A stretch of 32,000 nucleotides of DNA from Nitrosomonas europaea (GCF_900167395.1 NZ_FUWK01000029.1:7192-39191), one strand, 5' to 3'; shown: positions 5,438 to 15,044, counted from the stretch's first letter. The notes: a model not told the origin generated them from the letters alone. Made by a program: numbers and translations.

Positions 5438-6628
5438 ATGTCGTTACAGTCCTGGGCCTGGATTCACAAATGGAGCAGTATTGTTTGCACCTTGTTCATG
5501 TTGCTGTTGTGTCTGACGGGTCTGCCGCTGATTTTTCATGAAGAAATCGAGCATCTTAGCGGGGTGGTGGAGGCACCCCCCATGCCCAAAGGCACGCCGG
5601 ATGCCAGTATGGATCGTATCGCACAGGTGGTGCTCGCACGCCGTCCTGGCGAAGTCATCCGCTTCATGTTCTGGGATCAGGAGGAGCATCCGGATCTGAC
5701 CTATGTATCGATGGCCAGTCGGGTCGATGCCCCGCCGGAGGAAAGTAATTCAGTGGTGATCGATTCCCGTACTGCCAAAGTGCTGGACGAACCCAAGACC
5801 AATGAAGGCTTCATGTATGTGATGCTCAGGCTGCATGTAGACATGTTTGCCGATCTGCCCGGCACACTGTTTCTGGGTTTCATGGGCTTGCTGATGGTGG
5901 TGGCCATCGTATCGGGCGTCGTGCTGTACTATCCATTCATGCAGCGGCTGAAGTTCGGCGTGCTGCGCATGCAGCGCAGTGCACGAATCAAATGGCTGGA
6001 TATACATAATCTGCTGGGTATCGTGACCGTGGTCTGGCTGACAGTAGTGGGTCTGACCGGCTCCATCAACACGCTGGACCGCATTATCCTGAGCCTGTGG
6101 CAAATGGACCAGATGGCTGAAATGACCGCACCCTTTAAAGATCTGCCACCCGTCACACAGCCTGCACATCTTGAAGCATCGCTGCGTGCTGCTCGCGCGG
6201 CGGCGCCGGACATGGAGGTACGACTGGTCGCTTTCCCGGGTACGATGTTTTCCAGCCCGCATCACTATACCTTTTTCCTGAGGGGCAACACGCCGATCAC
6301 ATCGCGGCTGCTGAAGCCGGCGCTGGTCGATGCCAGCAACGGTGAGCTGACCGATTCACGCGATATGCCCTGGTATGTGAAGACATTGTTTTTGTCACAA
6401 CCATTGCACTTTGGTGACTACGGCGGCCTGCCGCTGAAAATTCTGTGGGCAGTGCTCGACCTCATCGCCATCGTCGTGTTGGCTAGTGGCCTGTATCTCT
6501 GGTTGCGTAAACCCAAGACGACGGCAGCATCGGTTTCCAAAGCGGACGATGCTGTACTGCCTCTCGATGACGACCATACAGCACCGAACAACGCGATGGT
6601 CTATATCAATGAGAATAAGGATAGATGA
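5438..6628 (+). CDS. PepSY-associated TM-helix protein (PiuB-like iron-regulated membrane protein)
   Basis: 396 aa. AAGGAG overlaps the receptor stop. The N-terminus (IHKWSSIVCTLFMLLLCLTGLPLIFHEE) and the C-terminal LHFGDYGGLPLKILWAVLDL motif are typical of the family. The position after a TonB receptor is also typical. Confidence 0.88.
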   Translation: MSLQSWAWIHKWSSIVCTLFMLLLCLTGLPLIFHEEIEHLSGVVEAPPMPKGTPDASMDRIAQVVLARRPGEVIRFMFWDQEEHPDLTYVSMASRVDAPPEESNSVVIDSRTAKVLDEPKTNEGFMYVMLRLHVDMFADLPGTLFLGFMGLLMVVAIVSGVVLYYPFMQRLKFGVLRMQRSARIKWLDIHNLLGIVTVVWLTVVGLTGSINTLDRIILSLWQMDQMAEMTAPFKDLPPVTQPAHLEASLRAARAAAPDMEVRLVAFPGTMFSSPHHYTFFLRGNTPITSRLLKPALVDASNGELTDSRDMPWYVKTLFLSQPLHFGDYGGLPLKILWAVLDLIAIVVLASGLYLWLRKPKTTAASVSKADDAVLPLDDDHTAPNNAMVYINENKDR

Positions 6629-6629
6629 C

Positions 6630-6839
6630 ATGACGAATCGGCTGGAATCGCGCACGATGTATACAAAGCACCGACAATCGGTTCGAGAAGTGTTTTTCAT
6701 ACCGACGCTATTAAGCGTGGCAGTCCTGATCGGCCTGGTTTCCGCCCTCATCGGTGACGGTATCTGGGACGTAGTATCGTGGCTGACCATTCTGGCACCT
6801 GTTGTGGTGGTGATCCTGGCCTGGTGGCGTCGGGGCTAA
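6630..6839 (+). CDS. small (69 aa) two-TM membrane protein, translationally coupled to the PepSY gene
   Basis: The ATG at 6630 lies 1 nt after the PepSY stop (TGA 6626-6628). It is the in-frame internal start of listed ORF 6486..6839. There are two hydrophobic segments (VFFIPTLLSVAVLIGLVSALI and WLTILAPVVVVILAWW). Its 5' end is conserved in the decayed second copy at 8410. Confidence 0.55.
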   Translation: MTNRLESRTMYTKHRQSVREVFFIPTLLSVAVLIGLVSALIGDGIWDVVSWLTILAPVVVVILAWWRRG

Positions 6840-7054: not shown

Positions 7055-7355
7055 TCAGACGTTCCTTAGCAATTCTTGCAGTACTTCTTCTGTCATACCG
7101 GCTTCCTGCGCCTTGGCGCCGACACGATCGCTGAAGCGCTGAAACTCAGCCACGTTTAGATTGACCAGTCGTTCGTATTCGTCCATCGACATCATCACTG
7201 CCACGTCCCGTTTCTGGCGCTGGATGATGACAGGCTCGCGCCGGGAATTTATCCTGAAAATCGGGGTAATGCGATCGAATCATTTCCAGCAATGACTGGA
7301 GAATAATCCGAGCGATATGGCTCGTACCTCGCCGCATCCTGTCGCGCTTGACCAT
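7055..7355 (-). pseudogene. Phd/YefM-type antitoxin remnant (frame-disrupted)
   Basis: My minus-strand translation of 7249->7055 gives NSRREPVIIQRQKRDVAVMMSMDEYERLVNLNVAEFQRFSDRVGAKAQEAGMTEEVLQELLRNV*. This carries the Phd/YefM core pattern PV.I.R..K..AV..S..EYE.L. An in-frame stop lies just upstream at 7280-7282. The possible N-terminus (listed ORF 7146..7355, MVKRD..IILQSLLEMIRS) is in another frame. No partner toxin ORF survives downstream. Confidence 0.45.
7233..7308. repeat. direct repeat copy 1 (about 75 bp), partner at 8091..8164
   Basis: GGCTCGCGCCGGGAATTTATCCTGAAAATCGGGGTAATGCGATCGAATCATTTCCAGCAATGACTGGAGAATAATC was compared with 8091-8164. The hand alignment shows 4 mismatches and 2 single-nt gaps over 76 columns. 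Confidence 0.85.
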
Positions 7356-7400: not shown

Positions 7401-7409
7401 GGCTTGGCT

Positions 7410-7616
7410 ATGACAGCGGTTACCGTTTCACCGAAGTACCAGATTGTAATCCCGAAAGAAATTCGCGAATCAATGGGTATTGTGTCGGGGCAGAAAATCC
7501 AGGTTATGTCCTATCAGGGGCGAATTGAATTGATTCCCCTCAAACCCATGAAGGAGATGAGAGGTTTTCTCAAGGGTATTGATACTACCGTTACCAGAGA
7601 CGAAGATCGGGTATGA
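7410..7616 (+). CDS. vapB: AbrB/MazE/SpoVT-family antitoxin (VapB)
   Basis: ORF 7404..7616; the first ATG is at 7410. It has the SpoVT-AbrB motif VSPKYQIVIPKEIRESMGIVSGQKIQV. Its stop is 3 nt before the PIN gene start. Confidence 0.85.
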   Translation: MTAVTVSPKYQIVIPKEIRESMGIVSGQKIQVMSYQGRIELIPLKPMKEMRGFLKGIDTTVTRDEDRV

Positions 7617-7619
7617 GGT

Positions 7620-8000
7620 ATGAATGTAGTTGATTCTTCCGCCTGGTTGTCCTATTTCGCAGGTGACGCAAATGCCCCGGTATTTACAGGGCCTGTTGAG
7701 CAAATCTCGCAGTTGCTGGTGCCAAGCATCACCATAACGGAAGTTTTCAAAAACGTGTTACACCAACGTGGCGAGGAGGCCGCTTTGGTTGTGGTGGCTC
7801 ATATGGAGCAAGGGCGAGTGGTGCCGCTGGATTCTGAGCTGGCAATGGACGCTGCAAAATTTGGCGTTCTGTATAAGTTGCCATTAGCGGACAGCATCAT
7901 ATTTGCCACTGCGCATAAATACGGTGCCACGCTTTGGACTCAGGATAATGACTTTGAAGGTTTGTTAAACGTCAAGTATGTACCGAAGAGCGGTATATAA
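7620..8000 (+). CDS. vapC: PIN-domain ribonuclease toxin (VapC)
   Basis: 126 aa. It begins MNVVDSSAWLSYF (first acidic PIN residue). It also has ..ITITEV.. and ..LADSIIFATAHKYGATLWTQDNDF, which carry the later PIN acidic residues. Confidence 0.88.
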   Translation: MNVVDSSAWLSYFAGDANAPVFTGPVEQISQLLVPSITITEVFKNVLHQRGEEAALVVVAHMEQGRVVPLDSELAMDAAKFGVLYKLPLADSIIFATAHKYGATLWTQDNDFEGLLNVKYVPKSGI

Positions 8001-8090: not shown

Positions 8091-8164
8091 GGTCGCGCAG
8101 GAAATTTATCCTGAAAATCGGGGTAATGGATCGAATCATTTCCGGCAATGGCTGGAGAATAATC
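8091..8164. repeat. direct repeat copy 2, partner of 7233..7308
   Basis: See copy 1. This copy ends 1 nt before the decayed PepSY 3' fragment begins. Confidence 0.85.
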
Positions 8165-8165
8165 A

Positions 8166-8472
8166 CTGTTTCTAGCGCAATGACTGCATTCTGGCGATTA
8201 TGGCGGGCTGCCGCTGAAAATCCTGTGGGCAGTGCTCGACCTCATCGCCATCGTTGTGTTGGTCAGCGGCCTGTATCTCTGGTTGCGCAAACCCAAGACG
8301 ATAACAGCATCGGCTTCCAACGCGGAAGAGGCTGTACTACCTCTCGACGACGACCATACAGCACCGAACAATACGATGGTCTATATCAATGAAAACAAGG
8401 ATAGATGACATGACAAATCGGCTGGAATCGCGCACGGTACATGCAAAGCACCGGTAATCGGTTCGAGAAGTG
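8166..8472 (+). pseudogene. decayed second copy of the PepSY 3' end plus the start of the small downstream ORF
   Basis: 8201-8472 aligns without gaps to 6421-6692 with 28 mismatches in 272 nt (hand count, about 90%). Weaker similarity extends back to 8166 and 6386. The copy has an in-frame TGA at 8181-8183 (LFLAQ*LHSGDYGG versus LFLSQPLHFGDYGG). The small-ORF copy stops early (MTNRLESRTVHAKHR*, TAA 8455-8457). No 5' part of the gene is present. Confidence 0.8.
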
Positions 8473-8917
8473 GACACTATTCCCCGCCCTCGCGAGGAGG
8501 CTGCAGGCCGACGTGGCGATCCAGCAGCACTGAATGTTGTTCTGGATTGCTTCATCCTTGCAGGATTTGCAAAGAGGAGATTTATCTCACTTGTGCCATA
8601 ATCACCACCGTTTTCGTGAGGTCGCAAGCCGAAGGCTAAACAAGTAATCCATGAAATACAGGTTCTTTCCGACGCTTAAACAGTAGTACTTGCGCTTTAT
8701 TCTCTTCTGTATTTAGTTAAGCAGTTTTTAGGCTGATTGCGCTGTTGTCTTATTTGTCAGCGGAAATTGTTTTGTTGGGTGAAATTTTCATTGAAATACA
8801 TGATGATAATTAACTTATTTCAGAGTTATACGACATTACAAACAGGATTATTGGACAAAATGTCTTATATATTGCGTTGGGCATCTCGTGGGGTACCGAT
8901 ACTACGGAGGCTAAGGA

Positions 8918-9325
8918 ATGGATGAGATCATCAAACAAAGTCCTGTTTTGTGGGTTCTAAGCGCCGTAGTTACTGGCTTCATCGCTGGCATCGCTGCGTA
9001 CATTGGTTTACTCAAGATAACGAATCAGGAGACTATTATAAAAGGGACTTATGAGCCAAAGAAGAACCTAGTGGGCCGTGTCTTGAAGAACGAAGTTCTC
9101 ATCGAATGCGGAAAGCTCATTGAGCTGGCAGGGCGCATAGATGGAGCGACGATGCCGGATAAAGTGGAGGCGTATATGACACAAACACTGATCTTTCTTG
9201 AAGGACTCGATCTTCCCAAAGTACAGCAATATCACCAGCTCAAAATGTCTTGGCCTGCTTATACGATCCAGCTATTGCTGGTGAATGACAAGCTGTCTTC
9301 GTCGCAGAAACTGGGGCGAGCGTAG
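8918..9325 (+). CDS. hypothetical protein with one N-terminal TM helix
   Basis: 135-aa ORF with GGAGG 8 nt upstream of the ATG. The TM segment is VLWVLSAVVTGFIAGIAAYIGLL. No family was recognised. Confidence 0.55.
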   Translation: MDEIIKQSPVLWVLSAVVTGFIAGIAAYIGLLKITNQETIIKGTYEPKKNLVGRVLKNEVLIECGKLIELAGRIDGATMPDKVEAYMTQTLIFLEGLDLPKVQQYHQLKMSWPAYTIQLLLVNDKLSSSQKLGRA

Positions 9326-9383
9326 GGTGTCCTCGAGGGGCTGAGATCAAGTTTTTCTGCCTCTGCAGGTGGTTAATGGAAAA

Positions 9384-9455
9384 GCCCAACAGGGCGCTCA
9401 AGCGGACCGCCAATCCACTGCGCGGCTTGTCGGCCCCTTAGCTTGAGCGTTATAC
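9384..9455 (+). other. attC-like recombination site
   Basis: Reading: GCCCAAC (R''-like) - AGGGC - GCTCAAGC ... GCTTGAGC - GTTATAC (R'-like). The 8-bp arms GCTCAAGC/GCTTGAGC are perfectly complementary. The site is 72 bp long and the next ORF starts 17 nt later. The R' box deviates from GTTRRRY at one position. Confidence 0.5.
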
Positions 9456-9471
9456 CTCTACGGATTGAATC

Positions 9472-9843
9472 ATGAACGATAAATCCAAAATGAAGGTTTA
9501 CTACAATTCAGCTTGCCCAGTTTGTAAAGCAGGGATAGAAGGGCAAATGGATAAGGATAGCGTCTGTGAGATTCAATGGAATGATGTTCACAAGAATAAT
9601 AGCTTGGTATCAGAGGTAGGTTCTGAGCTTGAATTTGTGCGTGAGCGTCTACATGTTGTCGATGAAAATGGCGATCTTCAAGTTGGATTTAATGCATTTC
9701 TGGCAATCTGGCGCAACTCCCCAAAGGAAACATGGAAATCAAGGCTGTTTGGTATGCCTGTCTTAAAACAAATATGCCAAGTTTTCTACAATATCTTTGC
9801 CGCAGCTCTTAATAAATGGAACAGAACAAAGAAACATTGGTAG
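9472..9843 (+). CDS. DCC-family thiol-disulfide oxidoreductase (DUF393)
   Basis: 123 aa. It has an N-terminal KVYYNSACPVCKAGIEG (CxxC) and the C-terminal hydrophobic pattern typical of DCC1-like proteins. Confidence 0.7.
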   Translation: MNDKSKMKVYYNSACPVCKAGIEGQMDKDSVCEIQWNDVHKNNSLVSEVGSELEFVRERLHVVDENGDLQVGFNAFLAIWRNSPKETWKSRLFGMPVLKQICQVFYNIFAAALNKWNRTKKHW

Positions 9844-9876
9844 GGCAACGATATAACCCAGGCGTTAGCTTTCTTT

Positions 9877-10606
9877 ATGACCTACGCAGACATCACGTTC
9901 AAAGACAAAAACGCTATTAAACGCTGGCTTCAGTCACGTAGGCTTGTCGTTGCATCTCGCATTGCTGATGCGGGGGGGGGATCCCCACTGTATTCTCGAT
10001 TTTGGTGCTGGAAATGGCGAGTTATGCAAACTCATTGCATTGCAATTTTGCTACGAACCAACTCCTTCCCTAATGGCCGAGGCAAAGGAAAATTTGGCCG
10101 ACTTGCCACAGATCAGTTTTTGTAGTGATCTAGAAAAAATATCTGATGGTTCAGTAGAGCTTATTTTTTGCCTTGAGGTCTTTGAACATCTTCCAGAAAA
10201 AGAAACAAAAGATGCTTTAGGACAATTCGATAGACTACTGACTGATAACGGCAATGCAGTTATCGGTGTGCCGGTAGAAATTGGGATTCCAGCCTTATAC
10301 AAGGGCATTTTTCGCATGTCACGCCGTTTCAATACATTCGATGCTTCAATCAAAAATGTTTTACTCGCTGCGTTGTCTTTTCCACCAAAAGACCGGCCTG
10401 TGTCGGAAATTACACCTGGTTTCGCCTTCCACCACGAACATATGGGGTTTGACTATCGTAAGTTACAAGCCCTCTTACATGCGCAGTTCGGGTTGCAGCA
10501 AGTTACTACGAGTCCATTTTCAATTTTCGGGCCATGGCTAAATCCGGAGGTAAATTTCCTCATACAGAAAGCTAACCCGGCGGTCAACGCAGACGCTGCG
10601 CGATAA
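9877..10606 (+). pseudogene. class I SAM-dependent methyltransferase split by a G9 homopolymer
   Basis: ORF 9877..10125 (MTYADITFKDKNAIKRWLQSRRLVVASRIADAGG..) and ORF 9944..10606 (..DPHCILDFGAGNGELCKLI ... IFCLEVFEHLPEKETKDALGQFDRLLTDNGNAVIGVP) overlap at the run of nine G at 9972-9980. Eight or eleven G would fuse them into one protein of about 242 aa carrying SAM-binding motif I (DFGAGNG). Confidence 0.7.
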
Positions 10607-10643
10607 AGCCGCGCAGTGTCGCACAATTCGCGGCCCGTTAGAC
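10582..10643 (+). other. attC-like recombination site overlapping the methyltransferase stop
   Basis: GGTCAAC (R''-like) ... GCTGCGCG-ATAAAGC-CGCGCAG hairpin ... GTTAGAC (a perfect GTTRRRY). GTCAACG and CGTTAGAC pair with one bulged base. The site is 62 bp long and the next ATG is at 10652. Confidence 0.5.
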
Positions 10644-10651
10644 ACCACAAT

Positions 10652-11080
10652 ATGCGTCTTTGGTCACTTCACCCCAAATATCTCGATCCTCAAGGTCTTG
10701 TCGCCTTGTGGCGTGAATCACTGCTTGCAAAAGCAGTTCTTCGCGGAGAAACCCGTGGCTACACAAATCATCCGCAACTGGAACGATTCAAAGCGCACCC
10801 TCAGCCTCACTTCGCAATCAATTTCTATCTCGCAGCAATTCATGCAGAAGCCACGGAGCGCGGCTATACTTTTGATTCATCCAAAATCGGGCCAGTTTGT
10901 TCAGTGCAACTCATATTAGTCAATAGCGGACAACTTTCACATGAATGGAACCACTTGCAGCACAAACTGGCTACTCGCAGCCCAATCGTGCATGCCCGTT
11001 GGAGTGATCTTGCCTCACCGATCTGCCATCCATTGTTCCATCCGCAGCCAGGGCCTGTCGCTTCATGGGAGCGAGTGTAG
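10652..11080 (+). CDS. pyrimidine-dimer DNA glycosylase/endonuclease V family protein
   Basis: ORF 10616..11080. The likely start is the ATG at 10652, giving MRLWSLHPKYLDPQGLVALWRESLLAKAVLRGETRGYTNHPQLERF. I recognise this as the conserved N-terminus of that family. Confidence 0.7.
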   Translation: MRLWSLHPKYLDPQGLVALWRESLLAKAVLRGETRGYTNHPQLERFKAHPQPHFAINFYLAAIHAEATERGYTFDSSKIGPVCSVQLILVNSGQLSHEWNHLQHKLATRSPIVHARWSDLASPICHPLFHPQPGPVASWERV

Positions 11081-11086
11081 GGTGGC

Positions 11087-11107
11087 GCCTAACTTTCGGC
11101 GTTAGGG
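11087..11107 (+). other. minimal attC-like relic (R''/R' boxes only)
   Basis: GCCTAAC-TTTCGGC-GTTAGGG. The two 7-mers are inverted core sites, but the element is only 21 bp, too short for a functional attC. The next ATG is at 11111. Confidence 0.3.
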
Positions 11108-11110
11108 TCC

Positions 11111-11407
11111 ATGACCAAGCCTCTCGACCGTCTCATTGGCATGACACTCCTGAGCGCAGAGATCGCCTCGGGGTCCGCAGAGCTACGATTCTCTCGCTGC
11201 GACTTCTCCGCATATTCAACCTATAGTTCGTTCCCTGATTTTGGCAGCCTTGTGGGCCAAACCGTACAGTCGATCGTTGGCTCCATGGATAGACTGGTCA
11301 TTCGCTTTGCTTTCGGTGAGTTTTTTATTTCGCTGCATCCAGACGACTATCGTGGTCCAGAAGCTTTCTGTGCCAGGTTTGCTGACGGGCCCTGGGTCGT
11401 TGAATAG
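11111..11407 (+). CDS. hypothetical protein (cassette ORF)
   Basis: 98-aa ORF that starts 3 nt after the GTTAGGG box and ends 6 nt before the canonical attC. No family was recognised. Confidence 0.5.
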   Translation: MTKPLDRLIGMTLLSAEIASGSAELRFSRCDFSAYSTYSSFPDFGSLVGQTVQSIVGSMDRLVIRFAFGEFFISLHPDDYRGPEAFCARFADGPWVVE

Positions 11408-11413
11408 CATGGG

Positions 11414-11473
11414 TCCTAACAATTCATTCAAGCGGATGGCGCTACGCGCAGCCGTTTAACCCCAGCGTTGGGC
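11414..11473 (+). other. canonical attC (59-be) site
   Basis: TCCTAAC-AATTC-ATTCAAGC-GGATGGCGCTACGCGCAGCC-GTTTAACCCC-AGC-GTTGGGC, 60 bp. The layout and much of the sequence parallel classical attC sites such as attC-aadA7 (TCTAAC AATTC GTTCAAGC ... GCTTAACTC AAGC GTTAGAT), recalled from memory. Confidence 0.7.
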
Positions 11474-11610
11474 ATCTGAACGACCACTTTTGAAGCGACG
11501 ATCTCTGCTGTACTTCCGTCAGCCGTATAGTTTGACAAAAAGACAGCGCTCTCAATTTACCCAAGGTAGCAAGGCGGATAGCGCACCTGTATGCCGCTTC
11601 TTAAATGCAA

Positions 11611-14600
11611 TCACAGATCGGGTTGTTGCAGCACCCATTCGTGCAGTGATACGTAGTCGGTTTTTCCGGTAGCGAGCAGCGGTAGCTTGTCGATGTACAG
11701 GATGCTCTTCGGTATTCCCAGTTCTCCCAGGCCATTCTGGTTGAAATAAGCAACGATTTCGCTGCGGTCCGCCGGTTGGCGGGTTGTGATCAGAACGAGC
11801 TGTTCGCCTTTTCTGGCATCGGGAATCTGAATGACAGCATGGCTGTAGTCCGGCCACAGCTGATGGATCGATTCTTCTATGGCCGGCAGTGAAATCATTT
11901 CCCCGCCTATTTTGGCAAACCGCTTGGCGCGCCCTTTGATGAAAACGTAGCCTTCTTCGTTGATTTCAACGATGTCGCCGGTATCATGCCAGCCCTCGAC
12001 AGGGGGTATGACCATCCCGGGGTTGGCTGCCAGATAGTAGCCCAGCATCACATTCGGGCCGGATACCAGTAGTTTGCCCCCTTGCGTGATTCCCGGAACA
12101 GGTTCCAGTTTGCTGGAAATGCCGGGTAGCAGGCGGCCGACTGATCCGGGATGGTTGTGCATGGGGGTGTTCAAACTGAGGATCGGAGCAGTTTCAGTTG
12201 TGCCATAGCCTTCGAAGATACGCACACCAAAATTCTCCGACCACAGTCTGCGTGTGCTTTCCCGCAATTTTTCGGCGCCGGCAAATGCGTAACGAACGCT
12301 GTAAAAATCGTAGGCGTTGGCATGGCGCGCATAACCGGCGAGGAAAGTATCAGTACCGAACAGCAGGTTGCATTGGTGTCGTAGATCAGCTCGGGAATGA
12401 CGCGGTAATGCAGAGGAGACGGGTACAGAAAGACCCGCATACCGGACAGTACCGGCAGCAGCATGCCGCCTGTCAATCCAAAGGAATGGAAGAGGGGCAG
12501 TGCATTGAATACCAGGTCAGTCGGGCCGAAATCGATCCGGGCGGATACCTGGAAACGATTGGCCTGCAGGTTGGTATGGCTGAGCACCACGCCTTTGGGT
12601 ACGTCTTCCGATCCGGAAGTGAACAGGACGACTGCCGGTGCATCCGGATTACGCCGGGAATGGGTATAGCGATAACTGATTCCCGGCAGCAGGCTTGCTA
12701 CCAGCCCTGCCAGTTTGTGCCACCAGTGCACCTGATGTTTCAGATCTTCCAGATAGATCAGTGTGATCTGCTGTGCTTTCAGACTGTCGGCCAGTCCGGT
12801 CAGTTTGGCGGCTTCGATGAATCTGCGTGCAGTGATGATGGTCCGGATCTGTGCTACCTGGCAGGCTGTCATGAGATTTCTGGGGCTGACCGAAAAATTT
12901 AGGAGGGCAGGTACACGTCCGAAAGCCTGCAAGGCAAAAAAACTGATCACGCTGCTCACCATGTTGGGCAGCATGATTCCCACGTTTTCCTGCGTGTGGG
13001 TATAGCGGCGCAGAACAATACCCAGGATGAAGCTGCGTGTGATCAGTTGAGAATAGTTCAATGGGTTGCGTTCGACATCTTCCGCGATGACGTGCTTTCT
13101 GCCGTGCGTGGCCGCAGCATCGAGCAGTGACTGAAACAGAGTTTGCCGCAGGACATTGCTCTGAAAAATCGTTGTGGTCATGATGTCGTACAGTTTCAGG
13201 CCGGCAGCGCGGCGACGGCGTTTGCCACGGATCGAATCCGGCAGATCGAAGCTTTCCGGCGGCATGACGGTTACGGTGATCCGCGGGAACCAGTGTATCC
13301 TCACCTTCCCTTTCAGTCTGGAGAAGAGCGTGTATTGCGGGCCTGAAAGGCTTACCGGCAACAGTTTTGCCCCGGCCTTATCCGCGATCATGGCCGGGCC
13401 TTCGTAGATTTTCATGAGTGACCCGGTCAATGTCAGCCGGCCTTCAGGGAAAATCACCACCCTGTCACCGTTTCTGACGCGTTCGATCAGCAGACGGGTG
13501 GACAAAGGATTGGTCGGGTCAAGCGCAATGGTGTCCGCCAGAAACAGGAAGGGCCGTACCCACCATTTGCGGGCAATACTGGTGTTGATGGCGAAGCACA
13601 GGCGTTCGGGAAAGCATACGCTCAGCAGTGTGGCATCCAGGAACGACAGGTGATTGGCGACGATCAGCACTTTTTCTCCTGCCTGCCGATAATGTTCCAG
13701 CCCTCTGATTTTCAGGCGATAGAACGTATGGAATCCCCACTGCAGAATGGATCTGGCCAGTTCATACGGCAACAGTCCCGCGATATAAACCGCAACCAGG
13801 CCATTTAACAGAGCGAGGGTGAGAAAGACTTCAGAAACAGTGAAATCCAATGCCAGCATTACGCTGATACCCGCTGCGGAAACCACCATGAACAGGGCAT
13901 TCATAATGTTGTTGGCGGCAATGGCGCGCGAACGGTGGGAGGGTTTCGTATAGTTTTGCACGATGGCATAGAGCGGCACGATGTAGAGGCCGCCGCAGAT
14001 CGAGATGGCCAGCAGATCCAGCAAAATGCGCCAGTGGGCGAATGATTCCAGGAAATTCAGCACGCCGATGAGTGTTCCATTCGCTGCAGGTGTGAATGAT
14101 GTACTGGCAAAATACAGATCGATGGTGAAGATCGTCATGCCCAGTACGCCTAAAGGAACATAAGTTGCGGCCACTTCACCTTTGAGCAGTTTGTCGCACA
14201 GCAGCGCACCGATACCGATTCCCACCGAAAAGAGTGTCAGGAACAGCGTAACCACCTGTTCATTTCCACCAATGATTTCTTTGGCGAAGGTGGGAAATTG
14301 TGACAGAAATGTCGCGCCAAACAGCCAGAACCACGAGACTCCGAGAATGGCGTGAAACACCGTGGTGTTCTCACGTGCCTGCCGGATGAGGGTGCGCGTT
14401 TCTTCAAGCACATGCCAGTTGACGATCGTATCTGCTGCTGCCGGGCGGACCGGGGGAATGAACAGACTGGACAGCCAGCCGGCCAGCGCTATCCCGATCG
14501 TTATGCCGGATACGATCGCCCCTCCCTGCTCGGCCAGAATGAGCAACCCGCCTATGATCGTCCCCAGCAGAATGGCAATGAATGTTCCGGCACTGACCAG

Positions 14601-15044
14601 TGCATTGCCGCCGATCAGCTCATCTTCACGCAACTGGTCCGGCAGGATGCTGTATTTCAATGGCCCGAAGAAAGCGGACTGGGCGCCCATCAGAAACAGA
14701 ATCATCATGAGCAGTATGACGCTATCCAGATAAAACCCCGCCGCCGCGCCTCCCATCAGAATGATTTCGACGAATTTGACGTGGCGGATCAGCCGTGCCT
14801 TATCCCATTTATCCGCCAGCTGGCCGGCAGTAGCGGAAAAGATGAAAAACGGCAGGATGAAAATACCGGCCGCCAGCGTGACCATGATCTGCGGGCTCAG
14901 GCCCGCGTTGTCCATGGTGGTGTAGGTAATCAGAATGACCAGCGCATTCTTGAAAACATTGTCATTGAATGCACCCAGAAACTGGGTAACGAAAAAGGGT
15001 AAAAAGCGTCTGCTCGAAAGCAGCTTCCATTGACTTGGGTGCAT
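11611..15044 (-). pseudogene. aas: fused lysophospholipid transporter (MFS LplT) / PlsC acyltransferase / acyl-ACP synthetase (Aas), with a 1-nt frameshift
   Basis: ORF 12171..15044 carries the MFS N-terminus (RRFLPFFVTQFLGAFNDNVFKNAL), the acyltransferase HX4D motif (VANHLSFLD, ..FPEGRLT) and an AMP-binding domain (LFTSGSEDVPKGVVLSH). After ..ELIYDTNAT the frame is lost. The correct continuation (L)LFGTDTFLAGYARHANAYDFYSVRYAFAGAEKLRESTRRLW..EGYGTTE.. lies in the frame of ORF 11611..12267. The junction is at about 12361-12372, where one base appears to be missing. Confidence 0.8.

Follow-up and report, generated by a model that had tools for sequence, protein, structure and literature searches.

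The analyzed 32,000-nt stretch of the Nitrosomonas europaea genome (GCF_900167395.1, NZ_FUWK01000029.1:7192–39191; below, "the window" means this whole stretch, with positions counted from its first letter) carries an array of five gene cassettes, all on one strand, at positions 8877–11473. The locus is very probably what remains of a Nitrosomonas-type chromosomal integron. It is made up of a stump of the integrase gene intI, an attI site, and five cassettes, whose attC sites are in different states: two are intact, one is atypical, and two have collapsed. By operational definition the element is a cluster of attC sites without an integron integrase (CALIN), and by origin it is a degenerate chromosomal integron; because attI and the intI stump adjoin the array, we read it as a former complete integron, not as cassettes dropped at a secondary site. 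The kind of element is already known, and the present instance is well resolved, in a genome long known for its integron integrases.

attI and the intI remnant

The original prediction, made from the DNA sequence, described an attC cassette array with no integrase gene nearby, and stated that neither intI nor attI was visible in the window. The array is recovered, with two attC sites scoring 46.4 and 38.8 bits under the covariance model described below, and tblastn with IntI1 and with two IntIs of the family discussed here yields no match to the IntI catalytic domain over the full 32 kb; what does not stand is the absence of attI and of any trace of intI. The attI site of the Nitrosomonas-type integron family is placed by homology at 8790–8882 (+ strand), with the crossover between G8876 and T8877, and the decayed 5' stump of intI at 8645–8763 (– strand). 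As to the components of a complete integron, an attI with a G|TT crossover is present by homology, and a functional adjacent intI is absent.

Homology to attI is seen at three levels. The metagenome contig L114 codes for a 94-codon N-terminal fragment of IntI (Phage_int_SAM_4), divergent from its cassettes, and the 45 nt ahead of its first cassette are ~89% identical to window 8838–8882. The motif TTATTGGAYAAAATGTCTTATAYATT is found at 31 loci of the metagenome collection, and all 31 are conserved up to ...ATTRCG|TT and unrelated beyond it, each continuing with a different GTTRRRY and a different downstream gene; at least one attC match (model R1, E up to 0.01) is present in 22 of the 30 loci searched, always on the strand of an array leading away from attI. 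Finally, L147, an intact integron, has this conserved sequence between its intI start codon and G|TT, which are 113 nt apart, and G|TT is followed by a cassette with a 38-bit attC. The integrase of L147 is P0245; the family integrase, named "integron integrase", has 330–331 aa and occurs in Nitrosomonas, Methylomonas, Nitrotoga, and relatives, while N. europaea's own IntI is not found among the best 120 relatives of the family IntI. Judged by this homology, window ~8790–8876 is most likely attI.

The stump comprises ~40 codons with in-frame stops and a frameshift, and its homology possibly extends to ~8581; the size of the remnant is put at about 40–60 decayed N-terminal codons. With the IntI N-terminal fragment as a query, tblastn yields collinear matches on the – strand at 8872–8753 and 8763–8665 (e.g., KLLN*IQKRIKRKYY vs. 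KLLDQVREKIRSKHY), and blastn aligns this part of the window with intI-proximal DNA of the family members L118 (73% over 304 nt) and L128 (71% over 241 nt). L118 itself carries two copies of the attI and intI 5' region on one 5.3-kb contig (746–983 and 4732–5006).

Cassettes and attC sites

The training set of the covariance model, R1, comprised 13 attC sites that belong to class 1 resistance cassettes in plasmid records (aadA1, aadA2, aadB, a HAD-hydrolase cassette, qacL, cmlA1, blaVIM-2, aac(6')-Ib, estX, dfrA27, arr-3, and aac(6')-29a/b), with the bottom strands aligned and the R-box and L-box pairs annotated. As controls, the training sites score 43–80 bits, untrained attC sites are also recovered, and no false positives arise in 127 kb of plasmid DNA. 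The whole window was searched on both strands with filters off; apart from four attC sites, all hits score <10 bits. An attC model, the kind of check proposed with the original prediction, does produce matches.

Two sites on the + strand, 2 kb apart, are canonical. The attC1 site (9384–9455; R'' GCCCAAC at 9384–9390, R' GTTATAC at 9449–9455) scores 46.4 bits (E 5e-10, span 9382–9455), and its bottom strand folds at –21.9 kcal/mol (z –3.75). The attC5 site (11414–11473; R'' TCCTAAC at 11414–11420, R' GTTGGGC at 11467–11473) is of the 60-nt aadA type and scores 38.8 bits (E 4e-8, span 11412–11473); its supposed resemblance to classical attC sites is confirmed both by this score and by its near-collinearity with the attC of aadA2. 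Thermodynamic folding is uninformative for attC5 (z +0.24) despite the strong R1 score, and folding is not used here as a criterion.

A third full site had been proposed at 10582–10643. Here, the true left end is at 10570, and the resulting attC3 (10570–10643, + strand; R'' AGCTAAC at 10570–10576, a central palindrome, R' GTTAGAC at 10637–10643) is undetected by R1 with E up to 10; it is classed as atypical. Its R'' region forms with the start of cassette 3 a 17-nt inverted repeat (94%). In strains L006 and L007 attC3 is longer by 94 nt (insert at window 10614–10615; L006 9600–9695), and this long variant (L006) scores 12.6 bits and folds no better than shuffled sequences.

The remaining two sites, again on the + strand, had been described as collapsed R''/R' pairs, and this description holds. 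The attC2 site (9851–9870) consists of R'' ATATAAC, the spacer CCAGGC, and R' GTTAGCT, with the L''-loop-L' part missing, and scores 14.5 bits (E 0.07, span 9849–9870); attC4 (11087–11107) consists of R'' GCCTAAC, the spacer TTTCGGC, and R' GTTAGGG, and scores 16.5 bits (E 0.02, span 11085–11107). Both align with R', spacer, and R'' of the model only, while its inner 44–45 positions are skipped.

The predicted parsing into five small same-strand ORFs (open reading frames), each following a GTTRRRY box, also stands up. The boxes are GTTGGGC at 8876, GTTATAC at 9449, GTTAGCT at 9864, GTTAGAC at 10637, and GTTAGGG at 11101, and the array is closed by a sixth box, GTTGGGC, at 11467. There is one short ORF per cassette, five of five on the + strand, with the GTT box 9–80 nt ahead of each. 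Cassette 1 (8877–9449; ORF 8918–9325, 135 aa) codes for a protein with an N-terminal hydrophobic stretch and no Pfam match; cassette 2 (9450–9864; ORF 9472–9843, 123 aa) for a DCC1-like thiol-disulfide oxidoreductase (PF04134, E 2e-20); cassette 3 (9865–10637; ORF 9944–10606) for an S-adenosylmethionine-dependent methyltransferase (Methyltransf_11/12/23/25); cassette 4 (10638–11101; ORF 10652–11080, 142 aa) for a protein of the pyrimidine-dimer DNA glycosylase/endonuclease V family (Pyr_excise, PF03013, E 3e-23); and cassette 5 (11102–11467; ORF 11111–11407, 98 aa) for a protein that, again, has no Pfam match. Pfam thus agrees with the cargo named in the original prediction, i.e., a DCC oxidoreductase, a methyltransferase, a UV-damage glycosylase, and two orphans; the mosaic G+C content noted there is likewise seen (0.40–0.54 across cassettes vs. 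0.52 for the whole window). Two weak promoter-like sites are found inside the array by a simple scan, and shuffled sequences give more.

In four of the five cassettes the ORF starts 9–41 nt past G|TT. The exception is cassette 3, in which an ATG at 9877 is only 13 nt past the box, yet the methyltransferase ORF begins at 9944. This ATG is out of frame with the methyltransferase, across a poly-G tract (~9966–9974) that is G9 in the window and G10 in other strains; joining the two frames would need G8 or G11. The tract may be prone to slippage, or the differences in its length may be homopolymer sequencing errors.

The R'' boxes pair with the starts of their own cassettes. For cassette 1 the start GTTGGGC is fully complementary to its R'' box GCCCAAC; over the five cassettes, with four variable positions per R'' box, 17 of 20 positions match the own cassette start, vs. 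10 of 20 for the start of the next cassette, and among 120 permutations 17 matches are reached by the true assignment of R'' boxes to cassettes only. Each cassette would open with the distal half of its own R' box because IntI joined the attC of the circle to attI at G|TT, and matching of R'' to the own start is the signature to be expected of units that were once circular with a single attC.

Comparison of cassette boundaries with other arrays covers cassettes 2 and 4. The closest relative of the cassette 4 protein outside N. europaea is P0002 (85% identity); its gene, on metagenome contig L101, is preceded by an attC of 24.8 bits and followed by a complete 60-nt attC of 67.4 bits. The DNA homology between L101 and the window starts exactly at G|TTAG and stops exactly at the end of R'' GCCTAAC; past R'', L101 reads AATTC-ATTCAAGCC...GGCTTAAC-TCAGGT-GTTGGGC, and the window only TTTCGGC-GTTAGGG. 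Similarly, the cassette 2 protein has a relative, P0130 (80% identity), on L114, in a cassette with a full attC of 40.4 bits; here, the homology extends from the GTYATAC cassette start to R'', and the L114 counterpart of attC2 reads GGTATAAC-AAGTC-GTTCAAG...TCAATTAAC-TCCAGC-GTTAAGG. Further relatives of both proteins are found in ordinary chromosomal contexts without attC (L107, L111, and L112).

Since the homologous cassettes elsewhere are followed by a full attC, the collapsed sites are read as deletion derivatives, with R'' fused to the end of L'. In both of them R'' directly abuts the spacer normally found after L', and at the end of the deleted part stands an L' box that is a direct repeat of R'' (CTAAC/CTTAC for attC4, TATAAC/ATTAAC for attC2). 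Hence, R'' and L', being direct repeats, could have been the end points of the deletion, for which slippage of replication across the hairpin would be the simplest cause; the sites themselves show the architecture, and the mechanism is a proposal. On L135, a contig from a related lineage, the place of attC4 reads GGCGC-TGTA-GTCAAGCCGATCCACCTGGCTTAC-TTTCGGC-GTTAGGG, i.e., L''-loop-L', spacer, and R' are kept, and R'' is lost; the window and L135 thus retain complementary parts of a single ancestral attC that has suffered two different deletions. If the damaged sites are inactive, cassettes 2 and 3, and cassettes 4 and 5, are fused into larger units or frozen. The first cassette of L114, itself a degenerate integron, also ends in a shortened site (7940–7990; GCCCAAC, 14 nt, GTCATAC), hence, collapsed attC sites are not unique to N. 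europaea.

Variation among lineages and competing explanations

Among N. europaea strains the locus is 99–100% identical, with small differences only: the stop codon of cassette 1 at 9323 reads CAG in other strains, giving 152 aa instead of 135 aa, and the methyltransferase gene of L006 and L007 has 18 extra nt at window 10046. In N. eutropha and other Nitrosomonas species examined, homology ends at the 3' end of the adjacent aas gene, hence, the block is not conserved in the genus; past aas, N. eutropha has ORFs resembling speD and speE (by eye, from translations).

Close lineages differ in their cassettes. Contigs L126 and L144 have flanks 96–99% identical to the window, with the same left flank from 8013 (stump included) and aas on the right; their array is attI-A-B-C'-C4-C5, i.e., three different cassettes stand between attI and cassette 4. 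The first two of these are followed by attC matches of 30.7 and 38.9 bits, and no R1 match is found after the third. L135 (92–95% identical) has other proximal cassettes, the same cassettes 4 and 5, and the same right flank; its left junction is 40 nt from G|TT. By eye, a 507-aa ORF of L135 looks like an insertion sequence transposase. The 3' half of cassette 5 is replaced in L126 and L135. The comparison with relatives suggested alongside the original prediction thus gives a block that varies between close lineages, is absent in the other Nitrosomonas species examined, and is not conserved across the genus. A metagenome-assembled genome, L005, was disregarded as unreliable, as its region is rearranged and contains runs of N.

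On its left, the element has three different junctions, one each in the window, L009, and L135. In L009 (an SRR32307836 contig from an N. europaea-like assembly), another FecI/FecR/TonB-receptor/PepSY cluster, on the opposite strand, lies left of window ~8518, and stump, attI, and array are unchanged. Outside N. europaea, 11 related loci (within L117–L143) extend >1.1 kb past attI towards the integrase, and intact intI is seen in none of them: they have N-terminal intI fragments or nothing, with different breakpoints, and keep at least 40–60 nt of attI.

The history that we propose for the integron remnant begins with single cassettes which, following established integron biology, would have been captured as circles, with IntI recombining each of them, by way of its attC folded as a bottom strand, with attI at G|TT. 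The integrase gene has been deleted except for the N-terminal stump, and attI and five cassettes survive. Cassette exchange at attI most likely continued after the local integrase was lost, with IntI encoded elsewhere, because lineages appear to share the stump yet differ in attI-proximal cassettes; variable attI-proximal and conserved distal cassettes are as integron dynamics predict. The genome has two intI genes, NE0450 and NE2189 (PMC2426708, supplementary file 1); in the supplements to PMC3108266, one N. europaea intI is scored as functional and one as inactivated. We estimate from the order of locus tags and protein accessions that NE0450 and NE2189 both lie >200 kb from the array. Activity of an N. 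europaea integrase was reportedly described by Leon and Roy in 2003.

Several observations weigh against this reading. At the protein level the stump of intI gives a weak signal (E about 1e-4 to 1e-2) that partly overlaps attI, and the stump is proposed mainly from ~70% nucleotide homology over 240–300 nt. Servicing in trans is a further step, and differential loss from a longer ancestral array would fit the cassette distribution equally; homologous exchange of the stump–attI segment between lineages would give the same pattern, and metagenome contigs taken here as lineages could be chimeric at repeats. Since attC3 is missed by R1, the proposed limit between cassettes 3 and 4 is drawn from the R''/R' boxes together with the 17-nt inverted repeat and the homology of cassette 4. 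The attI-proximal region could have been kept because of a promoter, and in a complete integron a Pc promoter upstream of attI drives the cassettes; the region is AT-rich (0.41 G+C) and conserved, and a simple consensus scan finds no sigma-70-like site in 8450–8900.

An alternative is that a multi-cassette circle was inserted at a secondary GTT by aas through an integrase encoded elsewhere, so that the array never had its own attI or intI. This would agree with the absence of an integrase within 8.8 kb to the left and 20 kb to the right, with the presence of integrases elsewhere in the genome, and with the exact 13-bp direct repeat GCGTTGGGCATCT (8874–8886 and 11465–11477, + strand), which brackets the array with a period of exactly 2591 bp. 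The repeat is, however, weak evidence, as IntI recombination makes no target duplications, and GTTRGGCATC recurs at unrelated cassette starts in other arrays; on the same grounds it was not adopted as a target duplication or a circle-insertion scar. The commonest R' box of the attI family is GTTRGGC (15 of 31 loci, counted by hand), and the recurrent cassette-start motif explains the repeat only partly, the chance of full 13-nt identity being roughly estimated at about 0.01. It would also be explained if cassette 1 had a second, truncated copy downstream of attC5, and none of the evidence points to one. Homology to the attI of 31 arrays and of the intact integron covers the 90 nt that precede the first G|TT, homology to the 5' end of intI is found further left, and the empty site, searched in the metagenome collection as the joined flanks ATATTGCGTTGGGCATCTGAACG, gives no match; insertion of bare cassettes at this place is very improbable. 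The original prediction had the array inserted between the siderophore locus and aas: these are indeed its neighbours. Insertion as such is not demonstrated: no empty site is found, synteny in the other Nitrosomonas species examined breaks right after aas, and N. europaea-like lineages have at least three left junctions.

A former integron could also have been split by a rearrangement inside intI that parted attI and the cassettes from a surviving gene, e.g., NE2189 or NE0450. N. europaea does have two intI loci, the element's left side is a hotspot of rearrangement, showing three junctions and a duplicated 3' end of the PepSY_TM gene, and such a split is among the routes to CALINs listed by Cury et al. 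(PMC4889954). However, the inactivated N. europaea intI appears in a supplement of PMC3108266 to have a normal length and an early in-frame defect and not to be 5'-truncated, and the loss of the integrase at 11 related loci with different breakpoints looks like recurrent deletion; we regard a split as improbable. Scarcely any credence is left for the view that these are ordinary chromosomal genes with chance palindromes or terminators between them. On its side, attC3 and the two short sites are not significant alone, and the count of terminator-like structures equals the expectation from shuffling; however, two sites score like bona fide attC under an independent model, the statistics of R'' and own cassette start speak against chance, other arrays contain cassettes 2 and 4 again, delimited there by G|TT and R'', and the cassette content differs between close lineages.

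Genomic context, related systems, and implications

On the chromosome of N. europaea ATCC 19718 (AL954747.1), where the DNA around the DCC1-like ORF (9472–9843) is 100% identical, the array is at ~2.649 Mb. To its left are a FecI/FecR/TonB-receptor/PepSY_TM siderophore cluster, then a PhdYeFM fragment, and then a vapBC pair; to its right is aas, on the – strand. The 3' end of the PepSY_TM gene is duplicated (window 6384–6692 and 8164–8472, 87% identity), and the block between the duplicates holds the PhdYeFM antitoxin fragment (7055–7204, – strand) and the vapBC pair (7404–8000), the latter flanked by 73-bp direct repeats (7236–7308 and 8093–8164, 93% identity). To the left of the integron stump, the DNA has the look of a hotspot of rearrangement. 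The aas gene (11611–15044) is present as two overlapping ORFs of 957 and 218 aa, split near ~12364 by a 1-nt deletion relative to L006 and L126, both of which have the gene intact (1144 aa). Either aas is a pseudogene in the type strain, or the 2003 record contains a sequencing error.

CALINs are defined by at least two attC at most 4 kb apart with no intI (PF00589 and the IntI-specific patch) nearby (PMC4889954). The array here resembles those of Cury et al. (2016, PMC4889954) in having two or more same-strand attC sites within 4 kb and no intI nearby, and, further, in about five cassettes of mostly unknown or non-resistance function, heterogeneous attC sites, and IntI encoded elsewhere in the genome; unlike them, it keeps attI and an N-terminal intI stump. 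By origin it would then belong to route (iii) of the same authors, loss of intI (PMC4889954). Their screen for intI pseudogenes near CALINs used a profile of the IntI C-terminal patch together with PF00589 (PMC4889954), and would miss the stump seen here, because both profiles lie in the catalytic part. With chromosomal integrons of Nitrosomonas and related beta- and gammaproteobacteria the element shares attI up to G|TT, the divergent 5' end of intI, and the kind of cassettes and attC sites. Nitrosomonas-type integrons L147 and L114 adjoin hrpA; the present array adjoins aas, has only a stump of the integrase, and has three of its five attC sites damaged.

A similarity to the 60-nt attC sites of class 1 cassettes (aadA1, aadA2, and aadB) is seen in attC5, whose score was obtained under a model built from such sites. 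By eye, it is nearly collinear with the aadA2 attC in R'', the AATTC spacer, L'' TTCAAGC, the GC-rich loop, L' TTAAC, and GTTRRRY. The cargo, unlike that of class 1 integrons, is not antibiotic resistance, and neither attI nor the IntI family is related to the class 1 counterparts, attI1 and IntI1 (intact IntI of the family has ~51% identity to IntI1). In class 1 integrons, fused or frozen cassettes form by loss of an attC site. The damage to attC2 and attC4 is similar in that it leaves cassettes 2 and 3, and 4 and 5, as larger units; it is different in that both losses share a precise architecture, R'' joined to the L'–R' spacer and R', and in the complementary deletion of attC4 in a sister lineage. 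In one class 1 integron used for comparison (L099, plasmid NZ_CP038280.1, 3198–4547), a group II intron reverse transcriptase gene lies between the last cassette and qacEdelta1; it brings to mind the group IIC-attC introns, and one of these, N.e.I1, has been reported from N. europaea (PMC3001079).

No description of the array was found in the literature searched, which excluded Leon and Roy 2003 and 2009. The locus provides one concrete route to a CALIN, in which intI is deleted down to a short N-terminal stump and attI stays in place, and, because the published pseudogene screen uses C-terminal profiles, the share of former integrons among CALINs may be underestimated. Decay of attC can here be followed at the sequence level, with complementary deletions in sister lineages and recurrent R''/L' fusions. 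For the Nitrosomonas-type family as a whole we suggest, tentatively and with considerable doubt, that loss of the integrase with attI retained may be the usual state and not the exception, orphan attI sites still trading cassettes in trans. If this were true, many CALINs would be docking sites that are still live and whose N-terminal intI stumps lie beyond the reach of current screens, and deletion between R'' and L' would be a recurrent way to freeze cassettes into the chromosome. As close lineages share the stump and differ in their attI-proximal cassettes, servicing of orphan arrays in trans is a directly testable idea, in a cultivable organism with a characterised integrase.

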